From assembly GCA_963729835.1 (NCBI GenBank), contig CAVSQF010000022.1, forward strand, positions 296,150 through 360,149: a DNA stretch of 64,000 nt, given 5' to 3'. The translations under genes were made by a program, and so were the position numbers. The notes below the pieces were generated by a model. It was not told where the DNA came from and searched no databases. It worked only from the letters and a program-made list of their open reading frames with translations. Below, one piece after another: positions 2,932 to 10,209 of the stretch (within the stretch, counting starts at the first letter, position 1; each line of letters begins with the position of its first letter). The DNA is from an uncultured delta proteobacterium. Lineage in GTDB: Bacteria > Desulfobacterota > Binatia > HRBIN30.

Positions 2932-4330
2932 CATGGAAAAATGTTTCCACGTGACAATATGGGGCGAAGGAAACAACCGAGTACGTCCGATGGCTTTGCG
3001 GCTGTTGCTCGGGGCCACGCTGGCGGCGGCAATCGTGTCATTTGCGGGCACCGAGGCCAGGGCGGTCCCGAGCTTTGCGCGGCAAACGGGGCTGGCCTGT
3101 TCCTCGTGTCACACGACGTTTCCCGAGCTCAACGCCTTCGGGCGTGCGTTCAAGATGCACGGGTATTCCGCGCTTGGAATGAAGGAGCTCGAAGAAACTG
3201 GCAGTGACAAGACGCCACCGTTGACGATCAATCGGGCCTTTCCTTTGTCGGTGATGTTCCAGACATCGATCACCCGAACCAATCAGGCACAACCTGGAAC
3301 ACAGAATGGCAACGTCGAGTTCCCGCAGCAGATCAGCCTCTTTCTCGCCGGGGAGATCACGCCCCACATCGGTACGTTCCTGCAGGCGACCTACGACGGG
3401 CAGAGCGACCACTTCACGCTCGACAACACCGATATCCGATTCGTCAACGATGCCCAGATCAACGGGAAGGAACTGCTCTATGGCCTCACCTTGAATAACA
3501 ACCCGACGGTGGAGGATCCCTGGCACAGCACGCCGGCCTGGGGCTTCCCGTTCGCGGCGTCAGACACCGCACCGTCGCCCGCCGCGAGCGCGCTTGTGGA
3601 CGGGGCGCTGGCGCAGCAGGTGGCAGGGGCAGGCAGCTACGCCCTCTGGAACAGGCATCTCTATGCCAACGTGGCGGTGTACCGGACCGCGAAGATCGGG
3701 AACCCCCAGCCACCGCCGGGAAACAGCAGCGGTACGATCCGGGATGTCGCGCCCTATTGGCGGCTCGCGTGGCAGCAGAACTGGGGAGCCAACTACCTCG
3801 AGCTAGGCACCTTTGGGATGTTCGCTCAAATGTTTCCCGACTTGAAGGATGCCGACGGTAACCCGATCAACTCTGCCGGCACCGACAAGTTCACCGATCT
3901 GGCCTTCGACACCCAATACGAGCGCCCGCTCGGCAAGGATTTCATCTCGGCGCACGCAACCTACATTTATGAGAACCAGCAGCTTGACGCTACGCAAGGC
4001 GCCGGCGCCTCGGCCCGGCGCAACGACAAGTTGCACACCTTCCGCCTCGATGGCATTTACCACTGGCGCGAGCGCCTGGCGCTGGCACTCGGCTACTTCC
4101 TCACGCGCGGGACGAACGACGCAACGTTCTACTCAAGCAGCATCAACGGCAGCCCGGACAGCGACGGCGTGCGGACCGAGATTAGCTATTTCCCGTGGCA
4201 AAACGTGAGGCTGTCTCTCCAGTACACGGTGTACACGGAGTTCGACGGCCGCAGCCATAACTTCGACGGCAGCGGTCGTGACGCGGTCGACAACAACACG
4301 CTCTACGCACTGCTGTGGCTGATGTACTAA
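2932..4330 (+). CDS. cyc2: Cyc2-like fused monoheme cytochrome c / outer-membrane beta-barrel (candidate Fe(II) oxidase or EET porin-cytochrome)
   Basis: Strong SD AAGAGGAGG 5 nt before ATG at 2932 (alternative ATG at 2989). Signal peptide MALRLLLGATLAAAIVSFAGTEARA. A single CxxCH (CSSCH) lies 10 residues into the mature protein. The following ~430 aa is amphipathic and beta-rich and ends in aromatic residues (LWLMY), typical of beta-barrel OMPs. Size and architecture match Cyc2. Confidence 0.65.
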
Positions 4331-4352: not shown

Positions 4353-4820
4353 ATGACGTGGTTCGGGCGCGTACCCAGGATTGCATTCCTGGCGTTCGTG
4401 GCAGTTGCGGGATCAACCGCGCGTGCGGACTCCGATGCAGACGCTGCCTTGCGCCAGGAGATTGGCGAGCTGAAGTACGCGGTGCAACAGCTCGGGGCGC
4501 GAGTCGAAAGCCTGGAGCAACGCCTCGCCGGGCGGCCCGCACCGACTCCGCAGCAAACCATCGAGGGCACCGCGCGGAAGGAATCGCCGCCACCTACGGC
4601 CCCGGGCGGCACAACTCAGGAGCGCTGGAGACGCCTCACGCGTGGGATGAGTGTGGAGCAGGTCGAGGCGCTCCTGGGCCACCCGCAACGCACCGTGGAC
4701 ATGAGCCCGAAGACAATCTGGTATTACTCGTATGAGGGCGTCGGCAACGGCTCCGTCGTCTTCATAAAGGACGGTGGGGTGATCGATTGGCAGAGTCCTC
4801 CGTTCGGTACGTGGTGGTAA
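4353..4820 (+). CDS. BamE/SmpA-OmlA-like secreted protein with coiled-coil segment
   Basis: Signal peptide (AFLAFVAVAGSTARA), coiled-coil EIGELKYAVQQLGARVESLEQRL. C-terminal block GMSVEQVEALLGHPQ...WYYSYEG...VVFIKDGGV resembles the SmpA_OmlA fold. Confidence 0.5.
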   Translation: MTWFGRVPRIAFLAFVAVAGSTARADSDADAALRQEIGELKYAVQQLGARVESLEQRLAGRPAPTPQQTIEGTARKESPPPTAPGGTTQERWRRLTRGMSVEQVEALLGHPQRTVDMSPKTIWYYSYEGVGNGSVVFIKDGGVIDWQSPPFGTWW

Positions 4821-4906: not shown

Positions 4907-5275
4907 ATGCGAGGGTTTCGGTTATCCTTATGCGCACTCATTGCAGCAAGTTCGCTCACGGCGATCCGGGCGCGCGCCGACGATACGGCGATGGCCAAGG
5001 CGCGCGAGAACTACATGAGCTACTGCACGAAGTGCCACGGCGAGCAGGGGAAGGGTGACGGTCCCGGCGCCGCCATGCTCAACCCCAAGCCGCGCGATTA
5101 CACCGATTGCAAAACGATGCAGAAAAAGCCGGACGAAGAACTCTTCAAGGTCATTAACGAAGGCGGCGAGGCCGCCGGCATGTCGGCGGACATGCAGCCC
5201 TGGGGTGGCACGCTGTCCGACCAGGAGATTCACGACCTCGTGAAGTTCATTCGCGGCTTCTGCAAGCCGTCCTGA
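4907..5275 (+). CDS. class I monoheme c-type cytochrome (periplasmic electron carrier)
   Basis: RBS AGGAAGGAG before ATG 4907. Signal peptide MRGFRLSLCALIAASSLTAIRARA, heme motif CTKCH and methionine-rich distal region (GMSADMQPWGG). Confidence 0.8.
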   Translation: MRGFRLSLCALIAASSLTAIRARADDTAMAKARENYMSYCTKCHGEQGKGDGPGAAMLNPKPRDYTDCKTMQKKPDEELFKVINEGGEAAGMSADMQPWGGTLSDQEIHDLVKFIRGFCKPS

Positions 5276-5298
5276 ACGGATTGGTCGGCACGGGTTCA

Positions 5299-7227
5299 AT
5301 GGCCGACAAGGTCCGGGCGGTGATCCGCCCGCTGACGTGGTTCCGCGACAACGTGCCGTGCGTTGTGGCCTGTCCGGTGAAGACCGACGCGGGGCGGTAC
5401 GTGCAGCTCATCGGTGCGGGGCGCTACGAAGAGGCGTACGCGGTTGCCCGCTCGCCGAATCCGATCGCGTCAATTTGCGGGCGCACGTGTGGCGCGCCTT
5501 GTGAAGATGCCTGCCGGCGCGGCTCGATCGACGCGCCGGTGGCGATTCGGCCGCTGAAACGCTTCGTCACCGAACGGTTCGGGCCGGAGTCATTCAAGCC
5601 GATGGCGGTGGACGCGATTCCGAAAACGACGCGGGCATGCATTCAGAGCACGACGCCAGGACATCTGGAAGCAATGATGCCCCGGCGGGGGACACGGGCC
5701 AAAGTTGCCGTGATCGGTGCAGGACCCGCCGGCATGGCGTGCGCGCATGACCTTGCCGTCATGGGGTACCAAGTGACGGTGTTCGAGGCCATGGAACACG
5801 GCGGCGGGATGATGCGCTACGGCATCCCGGAGTATCGCCTGCCGCGCGAGGTCATCGACCGGCAGGTTGCTGAGATTCGCAGCCTGGGTGTCGAGTTCAT
5901 CTTCAGCCGCCCGCTCGGTGCAGATTTCGGTATTCGGGAGATCCGAGCGGCCGGGTACGCGGCTGTGTTTCTGGCCGTCGGTGCCGGTCAGGGACGCGAC
6001 CTGGCCATTGAAGGGCACGACGCGGACGGTGTCGTCAAAGCGATCGACTTCCTCTTAAACGTGAACCGTGGCTACCGCGTCGATGTCGGCGGCCGCGTCG
6101 TGGTGGTTGGAGGAGGCCTGGTCGCACTGGATGCCGCCCGCACGGCGGTGCGCGTGTTGCTCAGCGGCGCGGAACGCGCGGCGGAGGAGTTGGGCCGCCT
6201 GATCGGCACGGAAGTCCGTGTCGCTCTCGACGCGGCACGCGAGGCGCGGCGGCGCGGCGCCCTGGACGTCTCGGTGGTCAGCTTGGAGCAGCTCGAGGAA
6301 ATGCCCGCCATGCGCTCCGTGCAAGGGCGCGAGGAGATGGAGATCACGCACGGCGAAGGCATCGAGTTCATCCCCGGCTGGGGCCCGAAACGGATCGCGA
6401 GCGCAAACGGGCGTGCAACCGGCATCGAGCTGATTCGCTGCGCCCGCGTGTTCGACGACCAGGGCCGCTTCAATCCGTCGTTTATCCCCGGCAGCGAACG
6501 GATCGTGCCGGCGGACACGATTCTGCTCGCCATCGGGCAGCGGTCGGACTACAGCTTCCTGCGCCCCGAAGATGGCGTCGAACTCACGCCGAACGGACTG
6601 ATCAAAGTCGACCCGCAAACGCTGGCGACGACGGGCCAGGGGATCTTTGCCGGGGGCGACGGTGCGTTTCCCCCAAGCTTGCTCATCACCGCCGCCGAAC
6701 ACGGGAAGCGCGCCGCCGCCTCCGTCGATGCGTACCTCAAGGGCGCACGCCCCCGGCCGGCCATGCGGGTCGTGGCCGAGTTGCTGCCGCTCGAGAGCTG
6801 CCGCATGCCGGAGCGCTACGAGCAACTCACACGACACATCCCGGTCGTGCCGGTGGACCGACGCACGGGCATCACGGAGGTGGAGGAGAGTTACAGTGAG
6901 GCCGAGGCGCGGCAGCAAGCCGACCGCTGCCTCTCCTGTCACATCCACCCGATCTACAACCGCGACCTGTGCATTCTGTGCGCCCGCTGCGCCGACATCT
7001 GCCCGGAGAATTGCATCAGCTTCGTGCCGGCCGAGACCCTGGCACTCACTGGGAGTGATCAGGCAACCGTGGCCGCCCTGGCGCCAGCCGATCGGCCGCA
7101 TACGGCGTATCTCTACGCCGAGGACCGGTGCATCCGTTGCGCCTTGTGCGCCATCCGTTGCCCGACCGGGGCGATTACGATGGAGCGCTTCCAGTTCGAG
7201 GAGGTGGCCGATGGTGCTGCCGGTTGA
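5299..7227 (+). CDS. GltD-like NAD(P)H-dependent FAD oxidoreductase with N-terminal Fe-S cluster domain and C-terminal 2x[4Fe-4S] ferredoxin domain
   Basis: N-terminal Cys clusters (CVVACPV, CGRTCGAPCEDAC). Dinucleotide folds VAVIGAGPAGMACAH and VVVVGGGLVALD, plus GIFAGGD. C-terminus CLSCHIHPIYNRDLCILCARCADICP...CIRCALCAIRCPTGA. Start taken at ATG 5299 (track starts at TTG 5281). Confidence 0.75.
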   Translation: MADKVRAVIRPLTWFRDNVPCVVACPVKTDAGRYVQLIGAGRYEEAYAVARSPNPIASICGRTCGAPCEDACRRGSIDAPVAIRPLKRFVTERFGPESFKPMAVDAIPKTTRACIQSTTPGHLEAMMPRRGTRAKVAVIGAGPAGMACAHDLAVMGYQVTVFEAMEHGGGMMRYGIPEYRLPREVIDRQVAEIRSLGVEFIFSRPLGADFGIREIRAAGYAAVFLAVGAGQGRDLAIEGHDADGVVKAIDFLLNVNRGYRVDVGGRVVVVGGGLVALDAARTAVRVLLSGAERAAEELGRLIGTEVRVALDAAREARRRGALDVSVVSLEQLEEMPAMRSVQGREEMEITHGEGIEFIPGWGPKRIASANGRATGIELIRCARVFDDQGRFNPSFIPGSERIVPADTILLAIGQRSDYSFLRPEDGVELTPNGLIKVDPQTLATTGQGIFAGGDGAFPPSLLITAAEHGKRAAASVDAYLKGARPRPAMRVVAELLPLESCRMPERYEQLTRHIPVVPVDRRTGITEVEESYSEAEARQQADRCLSCHIHPIYNRDLCILCARCADICPENCISFVPAETLALTGSDQATVAALAPADRPHTAYLYAEDRCIRCALCAIRCPTGAITMERFQFEEVADGAAG

Positions 7228-7675
7228 GCCCGAGCGTCGTCGCGTTTTGCGCTGGATCGGACAATGGTCGGTGGTTGCGGCCATCGTCACCCAACTCGGC
7301 GGTGTGGTGCGGGCGTTCGTGCCCCGCGTGCTCTACGAGCCGTCGAAGAAATTCAAGCTCGGCAAACCCTCTGAGTATCCCGAGGGCGTCACGTTTGTGC
7401 CGACACACCGGCTGTTCGTGATGCGTGAGCGCAACCAGTTTCACGTGATCTCGGCCGTGTGCACCCACCTGGGGTGTACCGTGGAATGGAAAGACAGGCT
7501 GACCGAGTTTGATTGCCCTTGTCACGGCAGCAAGTTCCACAACGACGGCACGCCCTTCGCCGGCCCCGCGCCGCGGCCGCTGACATGGTACCCACTGAGT
7601 GTATCGGGCGACGGCTTCCTGGTCGTAGATTCCGCCAAGTCGGTACCGTCGACGTATCGCCTTGCGGTTGCGTGA
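7211..7675 (+). CDS. Rieske [2Fe-2S] iron-sulfur protein of bc-type complex
   Basis: TM helix WSVVAAIVTQLGGVV, Rieske boxes CTHLGC and CPCHGS. Start ATG 7211 overlaps the end of the upstream flavoprotein gene by 17 nt (translational coupling). Confidence 0.85.
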   Translation: MVLPVEPERRRVLRWIGQWSVVAAIVTQLGGVVRAFVPRVLYEPSKKFKLGKPSEYPEGVTFVPTHRLFVMRERNQFHVISAVCTHLGCTVEWKDRLTEFDCPCHGSKFHNDGTPFAGPAPRPLTWYPLSVSGDGFLVVDSAKSVPSTYRLAVA

Positions 7676-7684
7676 GAGCGTGTC

Positions 7685-8989
7685 ATGGGGGCGCAGCTGA
7701 CCCGATTCTGGCGTTGGATCACCTGGACGTGGAGCCCGGCAAGCGAGCGCGAAGCCAGCAGCGCGATTGTCGAGAACCTCTGGCTGCATTGGTTTCCGGC
7801 GAAAGTCGCCGAAGACAGCTTCACATGGAGTTACTCTCTCTGGCTCGGAGCGATTGCGGCCTTTCTGTTCCTCATCCTGACCGTGACCGGCGTGCTGCTG
7901 ATGTTTTTCTACGTCCCCTCGACCCAGCAGGCGTACTGGAGCATCAAAGACATCCACTACGTGGTCGGGTTCGGGTGGGTGCTGCGCAACCAGCATCGCT
8001 GGGCGGCCCACTTGATGGTGTTGGTGGTCTTTCTCCACATGCTGCGTGTTTTCTTCACGGGCGCCTACCGGGCGCAGCGCAGCGTGAACTGGCTCGTCGG
8101 TTTGGCGTTGCTGCTGCTGACCTTGTTCCTTTCCTTCACGGGCTATCTGTTGCCGTGGGACCAGCTGGCGTTTTGGGCAGTCACCGTCGGCACGAACATC
8201 GCCAAGGAAGCACCGTTGGTGGGGGCGGGGCTGCGGTTCGTCCTGCTCGGGGGAACGGAGATCGGCCAAAGTACGCTCGTGCGCTTCTACGTGCTGCACG
8301 TTGTCGTCTTGCCCGCGGCCGTGTTGGTGCTGTTCGCGTACCATATGTGGCGTATACGCCGCGATGGCGGCATGGCCGTCACCGACCCGGCTGCAACGGG
8401 CACCGCTCCCGTTGGTGGTGGGGCTCCGGTTGCTGGGAAGACCTACTCACTCTTCGGCATCACACCGGGGACCACCCTGGAGGTGCGTGCGGCCGGACCG
8501 CGCGATGAGGAGGACTCGGCTTTTTCATCACCCCACATGCTGCGGCGGCTGATGCTCGTCTTTCTCGGCGTGTTCACAATCACCATCGTTCTCAGTGTGC
8601 TTTCCGGAGCACCGCTGGAAGAGCCGGCGAATCCGGCGCTGACGCCGAACCCGGCGAAGGCGCCGTGGTATTTCTTGTGGCTGCAGGAGCTGGTGGCGAT
8701 TACCACGATTCGGTTGGGCGGGTTGACCCTCAGTGGGGGTCTTGTCGGTGGCATTTTGGTGCCCGGGATCCTGCTAGCGGCGGCGGTCGTCTGGCCATTT
8801 CTTGATGGCAGCCCGCTCCAGGTCATCGGCAAATGGTTCCCGCGGGAGCGCCGCGTGCAGAATACGGTGCTTGGGATCATCGCCTTCGCGATTCTGATCC
8901 TGGTGTTGATCGGCATGCTCATGCGCGGGCCGTATTGGCAGCTCTTCTGGCCCTGGCAAGCGTGGCCGGAGTTGCCACGCAGGTTGTAG
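7685..8989 (+). CDS. cytochrome b (b6-like N-domain fused to subunit IV-like C-domain)
   Basis: 434 aa polytopic protein with conserved cyt b blocks (WGAIAAFLFLILTVTGVLLMFFY, RNQHRWAAHLMVLVVFLHMLRVFF, LPWDQLAFWAVTVGTNI) and heme-ligating His pairs. Confidence 0.9.
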   Translation: MGAQLTRFWRWITWTWSPASEREASSAIVENLWLHWFPAKVAEDSFTWSYSLWLGAIAAFLFLILTVTGVLLMFFYVPSTQQAYWSIKDIHYVVGFGWVLRNQHRWAAHLMVLVVFLHMLRVFFTGAYRAQRSVNWLVGLALLLLTLFLSFTGYLLPWDQLAFWAVTVGTNIAKEAPLVGAGLRFVLLGGTEIGQSTLVRFYVLHVVVLPAAVLVLFAYHMWRIRRDGGMAVTDPAATGTAPVGGGAPVAGKTYSLFGITPGTTLEVRAAGPRDEEDSAFSSPHMLRRLMLVFLGVFTITIVLSVLSGAPLEEPANPALTPNPAKAPWYFLWLQELVAITTIRLGGLTLSGGLVGGILVPGILLAAAVVWPFLDGSPLQVIGKWFPRERRVQNTVLGIIAFAILILVLIGMLMRGPYWQLFWPWQAWPELPRRL

Positions 8990-9000
8990 CGGGTCGGACG

Positions 9001-10209
9001 ATGACCGGTCGCTTCCTTCACAACCGAGATTTCTGGCCGCTGCTGATCGCGTCGGTCGCTGCTTTAGTGGTCGTGCTCATCGTGGCATTCCGTGAGTACA
9101 CGCCGGAATGGCAGCACCGTATGGAGGCCTTTCGCAGTTATCTGCGCGGGCGCGGCGCGTATGATGCGGCGTCGACCGTGCCCAATACCGTGCAGCAGAT
9201 CTGGCTGCCGGCACTGGATCGGGTCGATCGTTGCATCAGCTGTCATGTCAACTACGATGCGTCGATTTCGGCGCTGCCCGATTTGCCGCCGCTGCACCGG
9301 TCGCATCCGGACCTGCCCTATATGGCGAAGCACCCCTTTCCCACCTTCGGGTGCACCGCGTGCCACGGCGGCCAAGGCTACGCCCTCGATCAGGCCGGGG
9401 CGCACGGCCTCGTGGAGCACTGGGATGATCCGCTGCTGAGCACCGCGCTGGCAACGCAGTACGGCCTCACGCGTGCGCAGCTGATGGAAACCAAGTGCAA
9501 CACCTGTCACCGGCGCGATGATTCGACGGCCGGAATGGATCTCATCAACATGGCCAAGGAGATCTTCGACAAGAAACGCTGCGTGTCGTGCCACGGCTTG
9601 CAGGGCGGCGGCGGGCTGGCCTCGTCGGACCTGACCTACGACGGCGACGTCAACCCCGAGCTTCTGGACTTTTCCAACGTGTCGGGTCCGAAGACGAGCT
9701 TGAACTGGGAGATCCAGCATTTCAAGAGTCCGCAACAGGTCGTGACACGCAGCGGCATGCCGAACTACCGGTTGAACGATGAGCAGGCGCGGGCGTTGGC
9801 GCTGCTGATGTTGAGTTGGCAGCGGGTCAGCTTCCCGCCCGAGTACCTCCCGGCAGCACGGCGGCGCCCACCGGCCGTGCTGCCGATTGTGCGCGAGGTG
9901 GCGTATCCCCCGCCGGCGACGACGGATGCGGGAAAGGAAGGCCGCTATGTGTTCAGCAATCGAGGTTGCAACACCTGCCATCGGGTCGGGGGCGGGAATT
10001 TGATTGGTCCTGATTTGGCAGCGGTCACGCAGCGGCGCAACGACAAGTGGCTCGGCACTTGGCTGAAAGATCCGGCGGCGGTGGTGGCGAAGGACCCGGC
10101 ACTGCAAACCTGGTCGCACGAGTTCGGCGACATCATCATGCCCAACCAGAATCTCAACGACGAGGAGATCGCAGGGCTGATCGCCTACATGCACGAGTTC
10201 CCAGAGTGA
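9001..10209 (+). CDS. membrane-anchored pentaheme c-type cytochrome (c subunit of the bc complex)
   Basis: ATG 9001 lies 12 nt after the cyt b stop. N-terminal TM (WPLLIASVAALVVVLIVAF). Five CxxCH motifs: CISCH, CTACH, CNTCH, CVSCH, CNTCH. Confidence 0.85.
   Translation: MTGRFLHNRDFWPLLIASVAALVVVLIVAFREYTPEWQHRMEAFRSYLRGRGAYDAASTVPNTVQQIWLPALDRVDRCISCHVNYDASISALPDLPPLHRSHPDLPYMAKHPFPTFGCTACHGGQGYALDQAGAHGLVEHWDDPLLSTALATQYGLTRAQLMETKCNTCHRRDDSTAGMDLINMAKEIFDKKRCVSCHGLQGGGGLASSDLTYDGDVNPELLDFSNVSGPKTSLNWEIQHFKSPQQVVTRSGMPNYRLNDEQARALALLMLSWQRVSFPPEYLPAARRRPPAVLPIVREVAYPPPATTDAGKEGRYVFSNRGCNTCHRVGGGNLIGPDLAAVTQRRNDKWLGTWLKDPAAVVAKDPALQTWSHEFGDIIMPNQNLNDEEIAGLIAYMHEFPE

Follow-up and report, generated by a model that had tools for sequence, protein, structure and literature searches.

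The 64-kb window analysed here (64,000 nucleotides (nt); contig CAVSQF010000022.1 of GenBank assembly GCA_963729835.1, positions 296,150 to 360,149 of the forward strand) comes from an uncultured member of the Binatia and carries, at 9001..10209, the gene for a membrane-anchored cytochrome c with five heme-binding motifs, the pentaheme cytochrome. The explanation that best accounts for the evidence as a whole, and that we consider probable, is that this protein is the heme wire, equivalent to cytochrome c1, of a Rieske/cytochrome b complex that bifurcates the electrons of quinol to cytochrome c and to NAD(P)+. Its role as the c1/f-equivalent, periplasmic, membrane-anchored c subunit is highly probable; the bifurcating function of the complex is put forward more tentatively, at slightly less than an even chance. 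Judged from its sequence, the operon is an analogue of the anammox complex encoded by Kuste4569-4574 in Kuenenia stuttgartiensis, because a gene for a GltD-like flavoprotein immediately precedes the Rieske gene. The cytochrome and its parts, numbered by amino acid (aa), are as follows.

9001..10209, plus strand: pentaheme cytochrome c, N-terminally anchored, 402 aa, in the position of cytochrome c1, with five invariant CxxCH motifs and one transmembrane helix
9031..9408, plus strand: membrane-proximal module, aa 11-136, with the transmembrane helix, a 'PEW..YQ' helix, the motifs of hemes 1 and 2 (CISCH, CTACH) and conserved H102 and H135
9496..9510, plus strand: motif of heme 3, CNTCH, aa 166-170, invariant
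9538..9816, plus strand: domain of heme 4, CcoO/FixO/NorC-like, with CVSCH at aa 194 and invariant M253 in 'GMPN'
9823..9930, plus strand: Pro-rich linker of variable length, aa ~275-310, with a predicted local distance difference test (pLDDT) score <50 at aa 290-299
9934..10194, plus strand: domain of heme 5, class-I cytochrome c, with CNTCH at aa 323 and nearly invariant M380

The open reading frame starts with an ATG 12 nt past the TAG stop codon (8987-8989) of the cytochrome b gene, and this start is backed by homologues that align from residue 1-4. All five motifs are in frame, namely CISCH at aa 78 (nt 9232), CTACH at aa 118 (9352), CNTCH at aa 166 (9496), CVSCH at aa 194 (9580) and CNTCH at aa 323 (9967); the variants CxxxCH, CxxxxCH and CxxCK were looked for and none was found. 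The ten cysteines of the protein all fall within these five motifs. From the composition of the protein 0.009 CxxCH would be expected, and three or more motifs were obtained in none of 200,000 shuffles. In an alignment of 26 homologues (36-94% identity) all five motifs are invariant, as are H102, H111, H135, H240 and M253, and M380 is nearly so. A chance or wrong-frame origin of the motifs is ruled out by the placement of the cysteines, the shuffles and the invariance in homologues. Across all six frames of the window CxxCH occurs eight times, the three occurrences outside this gene being one each in the genes for a Cyc2-like protein, a monoheme cytochrome c and the Fe-S flavoprotein. A single hydrophobic segment is present at aa 11-29 (Kyte-Doolittle (KD) 2.73), preceded by R4, H7 and R9, which suggests a topology with the N-terminus inside and the C-terminus outside. 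The earlier note on this DNA had described five CxxCH motifs behind one N-terminal transmembrane helix directly downstream of cytochrome b, and had named motifs lying in a non-translated frame as what would overturn that description; the reading frame, the motifs and the homologues confirm the description on every point.

Pfam and NCBIfam profiles divide the protein into three parts, multiheme, CcoO/FixO/NorC-like and class-I. The N-terminal multiheme region (aa ~60-200) gave weak, sub-threshold matches to c3, c7, c554 and MtrC-domain profiles, which were also seen with aa 118-199. The region of heme 4 matches PF02433 (E 1.3e-9), and the C-terminal domain matches the class-I cytochrome c profile PF00034 above its curated cutoff (E 7.2e-21), which places it in that class. 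From the motifs and the conserved residues we infer that hemes 1-3 are bis-His ligated and hemes 4 and 5 are His/Met ligated. The AlphaFold 2 (AF2) model of the protein has a mean pLDDT of 70.9 with the lowest confidence in the linker between hemes 4 and 5, and insertions in this linker differ in length among homologues (alignment columns 301-350). Because the linker is Pro-rich, variable in length and modelled with the lowest confidence, the domain of heme 5 looks tethered. Together the domains of hemes 4 and 5 look suited to the docking of an ordinary soluble cytochrome c or of oxidases, unlike a c3-type low-potential wire.

The closest described counterparts are two anammox complexes, Kuste4569-4574 and Kustd1480-1485, which combine a Rieske protein, b6 and subunit IV (SUIV), a multiheme cytochrome c and an NAD(P) oxidoreductase (PMC12954380). 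Literature searches found no other described system with this set of subunits. According to PMC12954380, Kartal et al. 2013 proposed that both complexes reduce NAD(P)+ by bifurcation at the Qo site. The subunits of the anammox complexes co-migrate experimentally, and Hauser et al. 2025 reported Rieske potentials of +303 and +335 mV together with AlphaFold 3 (AF3) models that support bifurcation and contain a new interfacial heme b with His43 of Kuste4571 as a ligand (PMC12954380). For comparison we used the Kuenenia locus that carries the Kuste4569-4574 gene set (L087). Residues 11-136 of the pentaheme cytochrome are homologous to the Kuenenia hexaheme cytochrome, the equivalent of Kuste4573 (L087:11360-12448), by both hhalign (99%, E 2.3e-18, 113 columns) and BLASTP (E 4e-14), and H102 and H135 both align with His residues of the hexaheme protein. 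Past aa 136 neither BLASTP nor hhalign gave a significant alignment between the two proteins, and their Pfam content differs. The flavoprotein is 34% identical to the equivalent of Kuste4570 over its full length (E 7e-98) and the cytochrome b is 46% identical to Kuenenia b6.

The two systems thus share a multiheme cytochrome c gene placed directly after cytochrome b (b6/SUIV in Kuenenia), with a Rieske gene and the gene for a GltD-like NAD(P) oxidoreductase in the same operon, and the shared Rieske protein, cytochrome b, flavoprotein, N-terminal anchor with its membrane-proximal diheme module and His proposed to ligate the extra heme are all homologous. The number of hemes and the distal domains are not shared: the window protein has five CxxCH and the Kuenenia protein six, and beyond heme 2 the latter is c554/c3-like, whereas the window protein continues with a CcoO/NorC-like domain and a tethered class-I domain. 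The unrelated remainder past aa 136 agrees with the remark that the anammox multiheme subunits are alike in little but the positions of the transmembrane helix and of two membrane-proximal hemes, which coincide in the AF3 models of both complexes (PMC12954380). Further differences concern the genes around it. The flavoprotein gene precedes the Rieske gene in the window whereas the Rieske gene comes first in Kuenenia; b6 and SUIV are separate proteins and the Cys for heme cn is present in Kuenenia, whereas in the window the two are fused and the Cys is absent; a gene for a HAO-like octaheme protein follows in Kuenenia and none does in the window operon; and the host of the window is not an anammox bacterium. 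Taken at the level of sequence, the comparison shows what we read as a modular design, in which a conserved anchor with a diheme 'adapter' common to anammox would carry interchangeable distal heme domains, so that the output side could be rewired.

The remaining subunits of the predicted complex are encoded immediately upstream of the pentaheme cytochrome.

5281..7227, plus strand: GltD-like NAD(P)/FAD Fe-S flavoprotein, 648 aa, without a hydrophobic segment (PF07992, PF14691, Fer4)
7211..7675, plus strand: Rieske [2Fe-2S] subunit, 154 aa, with CTHLGC..CPCHGSKF and one transmembrane helix (PF00355)
7685..8989, plus strand: cytochrome b, fused b6-like and SUIV-like halves, 434 aa, with eight hydrophobic segments (PF00033, E 3.4e-44)

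The flavoprotein combines an N-terminal Fer4_20 domain with a C-terminal 2x[4Fe-4S] ferredoxin domain, has PRK12771 as its best NCBIfam match (E 1.5e-123, below the curated cutoff) and is a candidate for the cytoplasmic NAD(P) oxidoreductase subunit of the complex. The end of its gene overlaps the start of the Rieske gene by 17 nt, and the Rieske ATG at 7211 has GAGGAGG just before it. The earlier note had recognised cytochrome b upstream and had overlooked this flavoprotein gene ahead of the Rieske gene, which defines the operon. The single CxxCH of the flavoprotein, CLSCH at 6928-6942 on the plus strand and in the same reading frame as the five of the pentaheme gene, lies inside its cytoplasmic ferredoxin-like domain, where the Kuenenia homologue has CLKCD, and is most likely not a heme site. 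The Rieske protein retains the potential-raising Ser in its box II, CPCHGSKF, and its best matches in the PDB are 9rk4 (E 3.5e-28) and 9rk3 (E 6.6e-23). A search with the 9rk4 sequence brings up proteins of Kuenenia and Brocadia, and we therefore equate the two entries with the two crystal structures of K. stuttgartiensis Rieske proteins described in PMC12954380.

In the cytochrome b, which matches b6 and, below cutoff, ExtP/ExtQ, a linker of ~55 aa spans roughly residues 230-285 between the b6-like and SUIV-like halves and has a high content of Ala, Gly, Pro and Thr. An alignment of 76 sequences, 75 family members plus Kuenenia, showed that the four heme-ligand His (H104, H118, H205, H220), H35 and the Qo motif APWY (aa 326-329) are present in all 76. 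Cytochromes b of the APWY type go with Rieske proteins of mid-high to high potential (Kao and Hunte, PMC4122944). H35 aligns with His43 of Kuste4571 and may possibly ligate an extra interfacial heme b in this family as well. The position of the heme cn Cys of spinach and Kuenenia b6 is taken by W53; it is Trp in 69 of the 76 sequences and Cys only in Kuenenia.

The arrangement of these genes is conserved well beyond the window. A profile scan of one genome per GTDB species gave at least 569 confirmed matching stretches of the pentaheme family, and the genomic context was taken from the best 80 of them, which span Binatia, many Acidobacteriota, Kryptoniota, Bacteroidota/Ignavibacteria, Calditrichota, Planctomycetota, Myxococcota and others. 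Of these, 62 non-redundant loci from at least seven phyla had enough upstream DNA for synteny, and across them cytochrome b is immediately upstream in 62/62, a Rieske gene is present in 61/62 and the GltD-like flavoprotein gene in 59/62. Identical gene order with short or overlapping junctions was seen on three independent contigs. The nearest relatives of the pentaheme protein (at most 94% identity) come from metagenomes and from metagenome-assembled genomes (MAGs) named Binatia or 'Deltaproteobacteria bacterium'. Each of the 80 loci belongs to a MAG. A HMMER search of 1.84 billion cluster representatives returned 177, 1119 and 4153 of them at E<=1e-30, 1e-10 and 1e-3, respectively. Many of the distant relatives reach 650-1000 aa and match in 3-7 separate stretches (P0374, P0386-P0391, P0403, P0503 and others); they may represent enlarged multiheme forms or fusions built from these modules, to which the Kustd1485 octaheme type possibly belongs. 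At one Binatia locus (L007:2500-8300) the pentaheme protein is 76% identical, just a C-terminal fragment of cytochrome b lies upstream (6462-6983) and the GltD-like and Rieske genes are absent from their usual place, which may reflect a rearrangement or an assembly problem.

Complete reading frames from other genomes contain five CxxCH in 70 of 81 cases and four in the other 11 (loci L015, L018, L019, L024, L041, L053, L056, L064, L078, L084 and L086). The tetraheme forms, of about 300-320 aa, lack only the C-terminal class-I domain. At 6 of these 11 loci a separate gene for a monoheme cytochrome c stands upstream of the flavoprotein gene, which suggests an exchange of domain for subunit between the heme 5 domain and the monoheme protein, and tetraheme forms accompanied by a separate monoheme cytochrome c fit heme 5 as the exit point of the wire. 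When the monoheme cytochrome c of the window operon was compared with the C-terminal domain of the pentaheme protein, homology between the two was not detected.

From these observations we infer how the complex would assemble and conduct. The N-terminal helix would anchor the pentaheme cytochrome beside cytochrome b. Quinol would be oxidised in a bifurcating manner at the APWY-type Qo site, and one electron would pass from the Rieske cluster to hemes 1 and 2, which would lie near the membrane and are probably bis-His ligated, with H102 and H135 as distal ligands. Heme 3 would pass this electron to the CcoO/NorC-like heme 4 (probable distal ligand Met253), and from there it would go to the linker-tethered class-I heme 5 (probable distal ligand Met380) and on to a soluble, high-potential acceptor, most plausibly the monoheme cytochrome c of the operon. 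The other electron would travel through hemes bL and bH, the possible H35-ligated interfacial heme b, the Fe-S clusters and FAD to NAD(P)+. Bifurcation would be the most likely mode because the complex is predicted to bear a GltD-like NAD(P)/FAD Fe-S subunit on its cytoplasmic side, like the anammox complexes.

The same genes could also belong to an ordinary Q-cycle complex with an unusual multiheme cytochrome c, in which the GltD-like protein would either feed electrons from NAD(P)H to the b hemes or to the Qi side, or be a co-transcribed enzyme that is not attached to the complex. The four b-heme ligands and the Qo motif are intact, as such a complex would have them; flow from NAD(P)H to quinone is discussed as an alternative by the authors of PMC12954380; and NAD(P)H production by a complex of this kind has never been demonstrated experimentally. 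We nonetheless regard an ordinary Q-cycle complex as quite unlikely, given that the flavoprotein gene is kept across phyla in a fixed order with short or overlapping junctions, that the His at the position proposed for the bridging heme is invariant and that the high potentials measured for the two K. stuttgartiensis Rieske proteins fit bifurcation.

Several points weigh against the bifurcating complex proposed here. Production of NAD(P)H by the anammox complexes themselves is a proposal only (PMC12954380), and the flavoprotein gene is missing from 3 of the 62 loci. Assembly of the pentaheme cytochrome with the Rieske protein and cytochrome b is predicted from gene adjacency and homology only, and the AF2 model is mediocre and without hemes, so that the order of the hemes and the distances between them cannot be checked on it. 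Three probable bis-His hemes would usually be of low potential, which is awkward behind a Rieske protein predicted to be of high potential. Finally, since the heme cn cysteine of Kuenenia b6 is absent from the cytochrome b of this family, the low-potential path may differ from that of the anammox complexes.

Other identities for the pentaheme cytochrome were considered. Operons of the petABC type encode cytochrome c1 after cytochrome b, and cytochrome c1 has a single CxxCH, the c1 fold and a C-terminal transmembrane anchor. The window protein is not a cytochrome c1 or f: PF02167 does not match it even at E<=10, it has five CxxCH, and its anchor is at the opposite, N-terminal end. The claim that it replaces cytochrome c1 is borne out as far as it stands in the c1 position after cytochrome b with no c1/f gene present, and the interpretation built on this is supported in part. 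The further claim that a five-heme wire is atypical holds against the textbook bc1 complex and not otherwise, the family being as large as the scans above found it.

In TorC an anchored tetraheme domain precedes a monoheme domain at the C-terminus, and the window protein resembles TorC in this layout, with an N-terminal anchor, four hemes, one class-I-like heme and a length of ~400 aa. It might on these grounds be an independent quinol dehydrogenase of the NapC/NirT/TorC type that merely adjoins cytochrome b. Its profile and its genomic context are unlike those of that group. PF03264 scored 8.1 bits (E 2.8; the cutoff is 24.1), no TorC, NapC or NrfH match was found in NCBIfam at E<=0.01, cytochrome b is upstream at every one of the 62 loci and the N-terminal module is homologous to an anammox bc-complex cytochrome; we consider an independent dehydrogenase extremely improbable.

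Two further candidates were rejected. The match to ActA of Alternative Complex III is confined to the class-I domain, and Geobacter ExtS matched with E 0.003, far below cutoff. ActA, as a membrane-anchored pentaheme subunit on a quinol:cytochrome c oxidoreductase, does provide a precedent for a five-heme wire, in a host complex that is unrelated and has neither a Rieske protein nor cytochrome b. The C-terminal class-I domain of the window protein aligns with the extra N-terminal class-I domain of Flavobacterium johnsoniae ActA (6btm_A; E 1e-11, profile positions 293-405). Replacement of cytochrome c1 by a subunit with more than one c heme and a class-I exit has precedents in actinobacterial QcrC and the fused diheme protein of Kuste3096-3097; unlike the window protein these diheme subunits consist of two class-I domains only, without an N-terminal multiheme module of the bis-His type and without an NAD(P) flavoprotein. 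Residues 187-233 are weakly similar to QcrC (E about 0.01).

The genes of the complex close a tightly packed string on the plus strand that runs Cyc2-like, BamE-domain, monoheme cytochrome c, GltD-like flavoprotein, Rieske, cytochrome b and pentaheme cytochrome, and the Cyc2-like gene opens it.

2990..4330, plus strand: Cyc2-family fused monoheme cytochrome-porin of the outer membrane, 446 aa, with AVPSFARQT, CSSCH and PEL
4353..4820, plus strand: small BamE-domain protein (PF04355, E 1e-5)
4907..5275, plus strand: monoheme class-I cytochrome c with a hydrophobic N-terminus (PF13442, PF00034)

The gene that precedes the string encodes a radical SAM protein and is divergent, on the minus strand. 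Comparison of 20 further reading frames of the window (1.8 to 48 kb) with Pfam gave no respiratory gene; four had no match, and those with a match are of a housekeeping type (fumarase, aconitase B, ABC transporters, MMPL, hydrolases).

Cyc2 proteins are recognised by a signal peptide, a single CxxCH with AxPxFAR[Q/K][T/Y] upstream and PxL downstream of it, a length of at least 365 aa and a 16-strand porin (PMC8406198). The window protein has the arrangement AVPSFARQT-GLA-CSSCH-TTF-PEL, 446 aa and 16 strands. Its AF2 model (predicted template modelling score (pTM) 0.72) shows 16 beta strands and, at the hydrophobic N-terminus, a helix (aa 2-19) that would fit a signal peptide, Foldseek matched the model to 16-stranded porins including OprP (E 1e-7 to 8e-10), and the C-terminus ends ...LWLMY. 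A search of the protein against Pfam and NCBIfam gave no match. Orthologues of the Cyc2-like gene adjoin the bc module at four related loci, upstream in L001, L010 and L011 and downstream in L005. Genes for BamE-like proteins with 36-52% identity lie directly downstream of Cyc2-like genes at three unrelated loci (L088:9433-9972, L089:9440-10213 and L090:4395-4961), and the protein seems to be a conserved, so far undescribed partner of Cyc2-type cytochrome-porins. At these three Cyc2 loci outside Binatia (a Desulfobacteraceae MAG, a Gammaproteobacteria MAG and one more contig) no bc module was found next to the Cyc2-like gene; the BamE-like gene is kept downstream in all three and a monoheme cytochrome c gene in one, upstream of the Cyc2-like gene of L088. 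In the Binatia lineage of the window, the cassette of cyc2, BamE-like and cytochrome c genes is joined to the NAD(P)-linked bc module.

The monoheme cytochrome c, whose N-terminus resembles a signal peptide by eye, has as its best NCBIfam match cytochrome579, the cytochrome 579 of Leptospirillum (E 7.7e-11, far below cutoff). In 11 related loci, most of them from Binatia, its gene is likewise kept just ahead of the flavoprotein gene (L001, L009-L011, L015, L018, L019, L024, L041 and L053 are among these loci), and the protein is a candidate for the soluble partner of the pentaheme cytochrome. The suggestion in the earlier note that the five-heme wire serves periplasmic multiheme partners finds no support here, the candidates in the operon, this class-I cytochrome c and the Cyc2-type cytochrome-porin, being monoheme proteins.

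With these neighbours the complex could conversely run mainly uphill, as a confurcating enzyme in which electrons from Fe(II) pass through Cyc2, the monoheme cytochrome c and the pentaheme cytochrome to the Rieske protein, the wire then being an inlet. The Cyc2-type gene, its BamE-like partner and a monoheme cytochrome c with weak similarity to cytochrome 579 stand directly upstream in the same gene string, the Cyc2 arrangement recurs at the four related loci named above, and the cycA-sdrA-petABC operon of Acidithiobacillus ferrooxidans sets a precedent for an uphill bc operon fed by iron (PMC10654088). A complex working in this direction would spend NAD(P)H to push electrons from cytochrome c into the quinone pool, with no obvious benefit. 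In most members of the family, such as those of Acidobacteriota, Kryptoniota and Bacteroidota, a nearby Cyc2 is lacking, the Cyc2-like genes at the three loci of other lineages are not beside bc modules, and Cyc2 homologues occur also in organisms that do not oxidise iron (PMC8406198). Sequence cannot reveal direction, and we hold a mainly uphill mode to be unlikely. The cassette raises the possibility that iron oxidation is linked to the supply of reducing power.

Multiheme cytochromes on Rieske/cytochrome b complexes and NAD(P)-linked complexes of this kind are known ideas. For the pentaheme architecture, the loss of heme cn, the fused cytochrome b, the spread beyond anammox bacteria and the linkage to Cyc2, full-text literature searches returned no description, and an earlier description is possible. 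We advance as a rather doubtful proposition that NAD(P)-linked Rieske/cytochrome b complexes form a major and largely unrecognised class of 'complex III' that spans seven or more phyla and keeps the pentaheme output; its members would act as quinone-based bifurcating NAD(P)+ reductases and in this Binatia lineage would be hard-wired, within one operon, to a Cyc2 iron oxidase of the outer membrane and a periplasmic cytochrome c. If this is true, such organisms could obtain reducing power without reverse operation of complex I, and this lineage would possess a compact operon module that links extracellular Fe(II) oxidation to the supply of NAD(P)H.

Whether Rieske/cytochrome b complexes have an NAD(P)H-producing mode is an open question in bioenergetics, and in the literature found its discussion is confined to slow-growing enrichment cultures of anammox bacteria. 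Hundreds of genomes, including those of Acidobacteriota, Bacteroidota/Ignavibacteria, Myxococcota and Binatia, carry a homologous module in a simpler form with a fused cytochrome b, no heme cn and no HAO. The conservation of the module, this simpler architecture and the invariant His proposed for the extra heme lend comparative support to the anammox model and offer many alternative organisms in which it could be tested. For the Binatia, a group known only from metagenomes, the tie of the operon to a Cyc2-type cytochrome-porin suggests a route from iron oxidation to reducing power.

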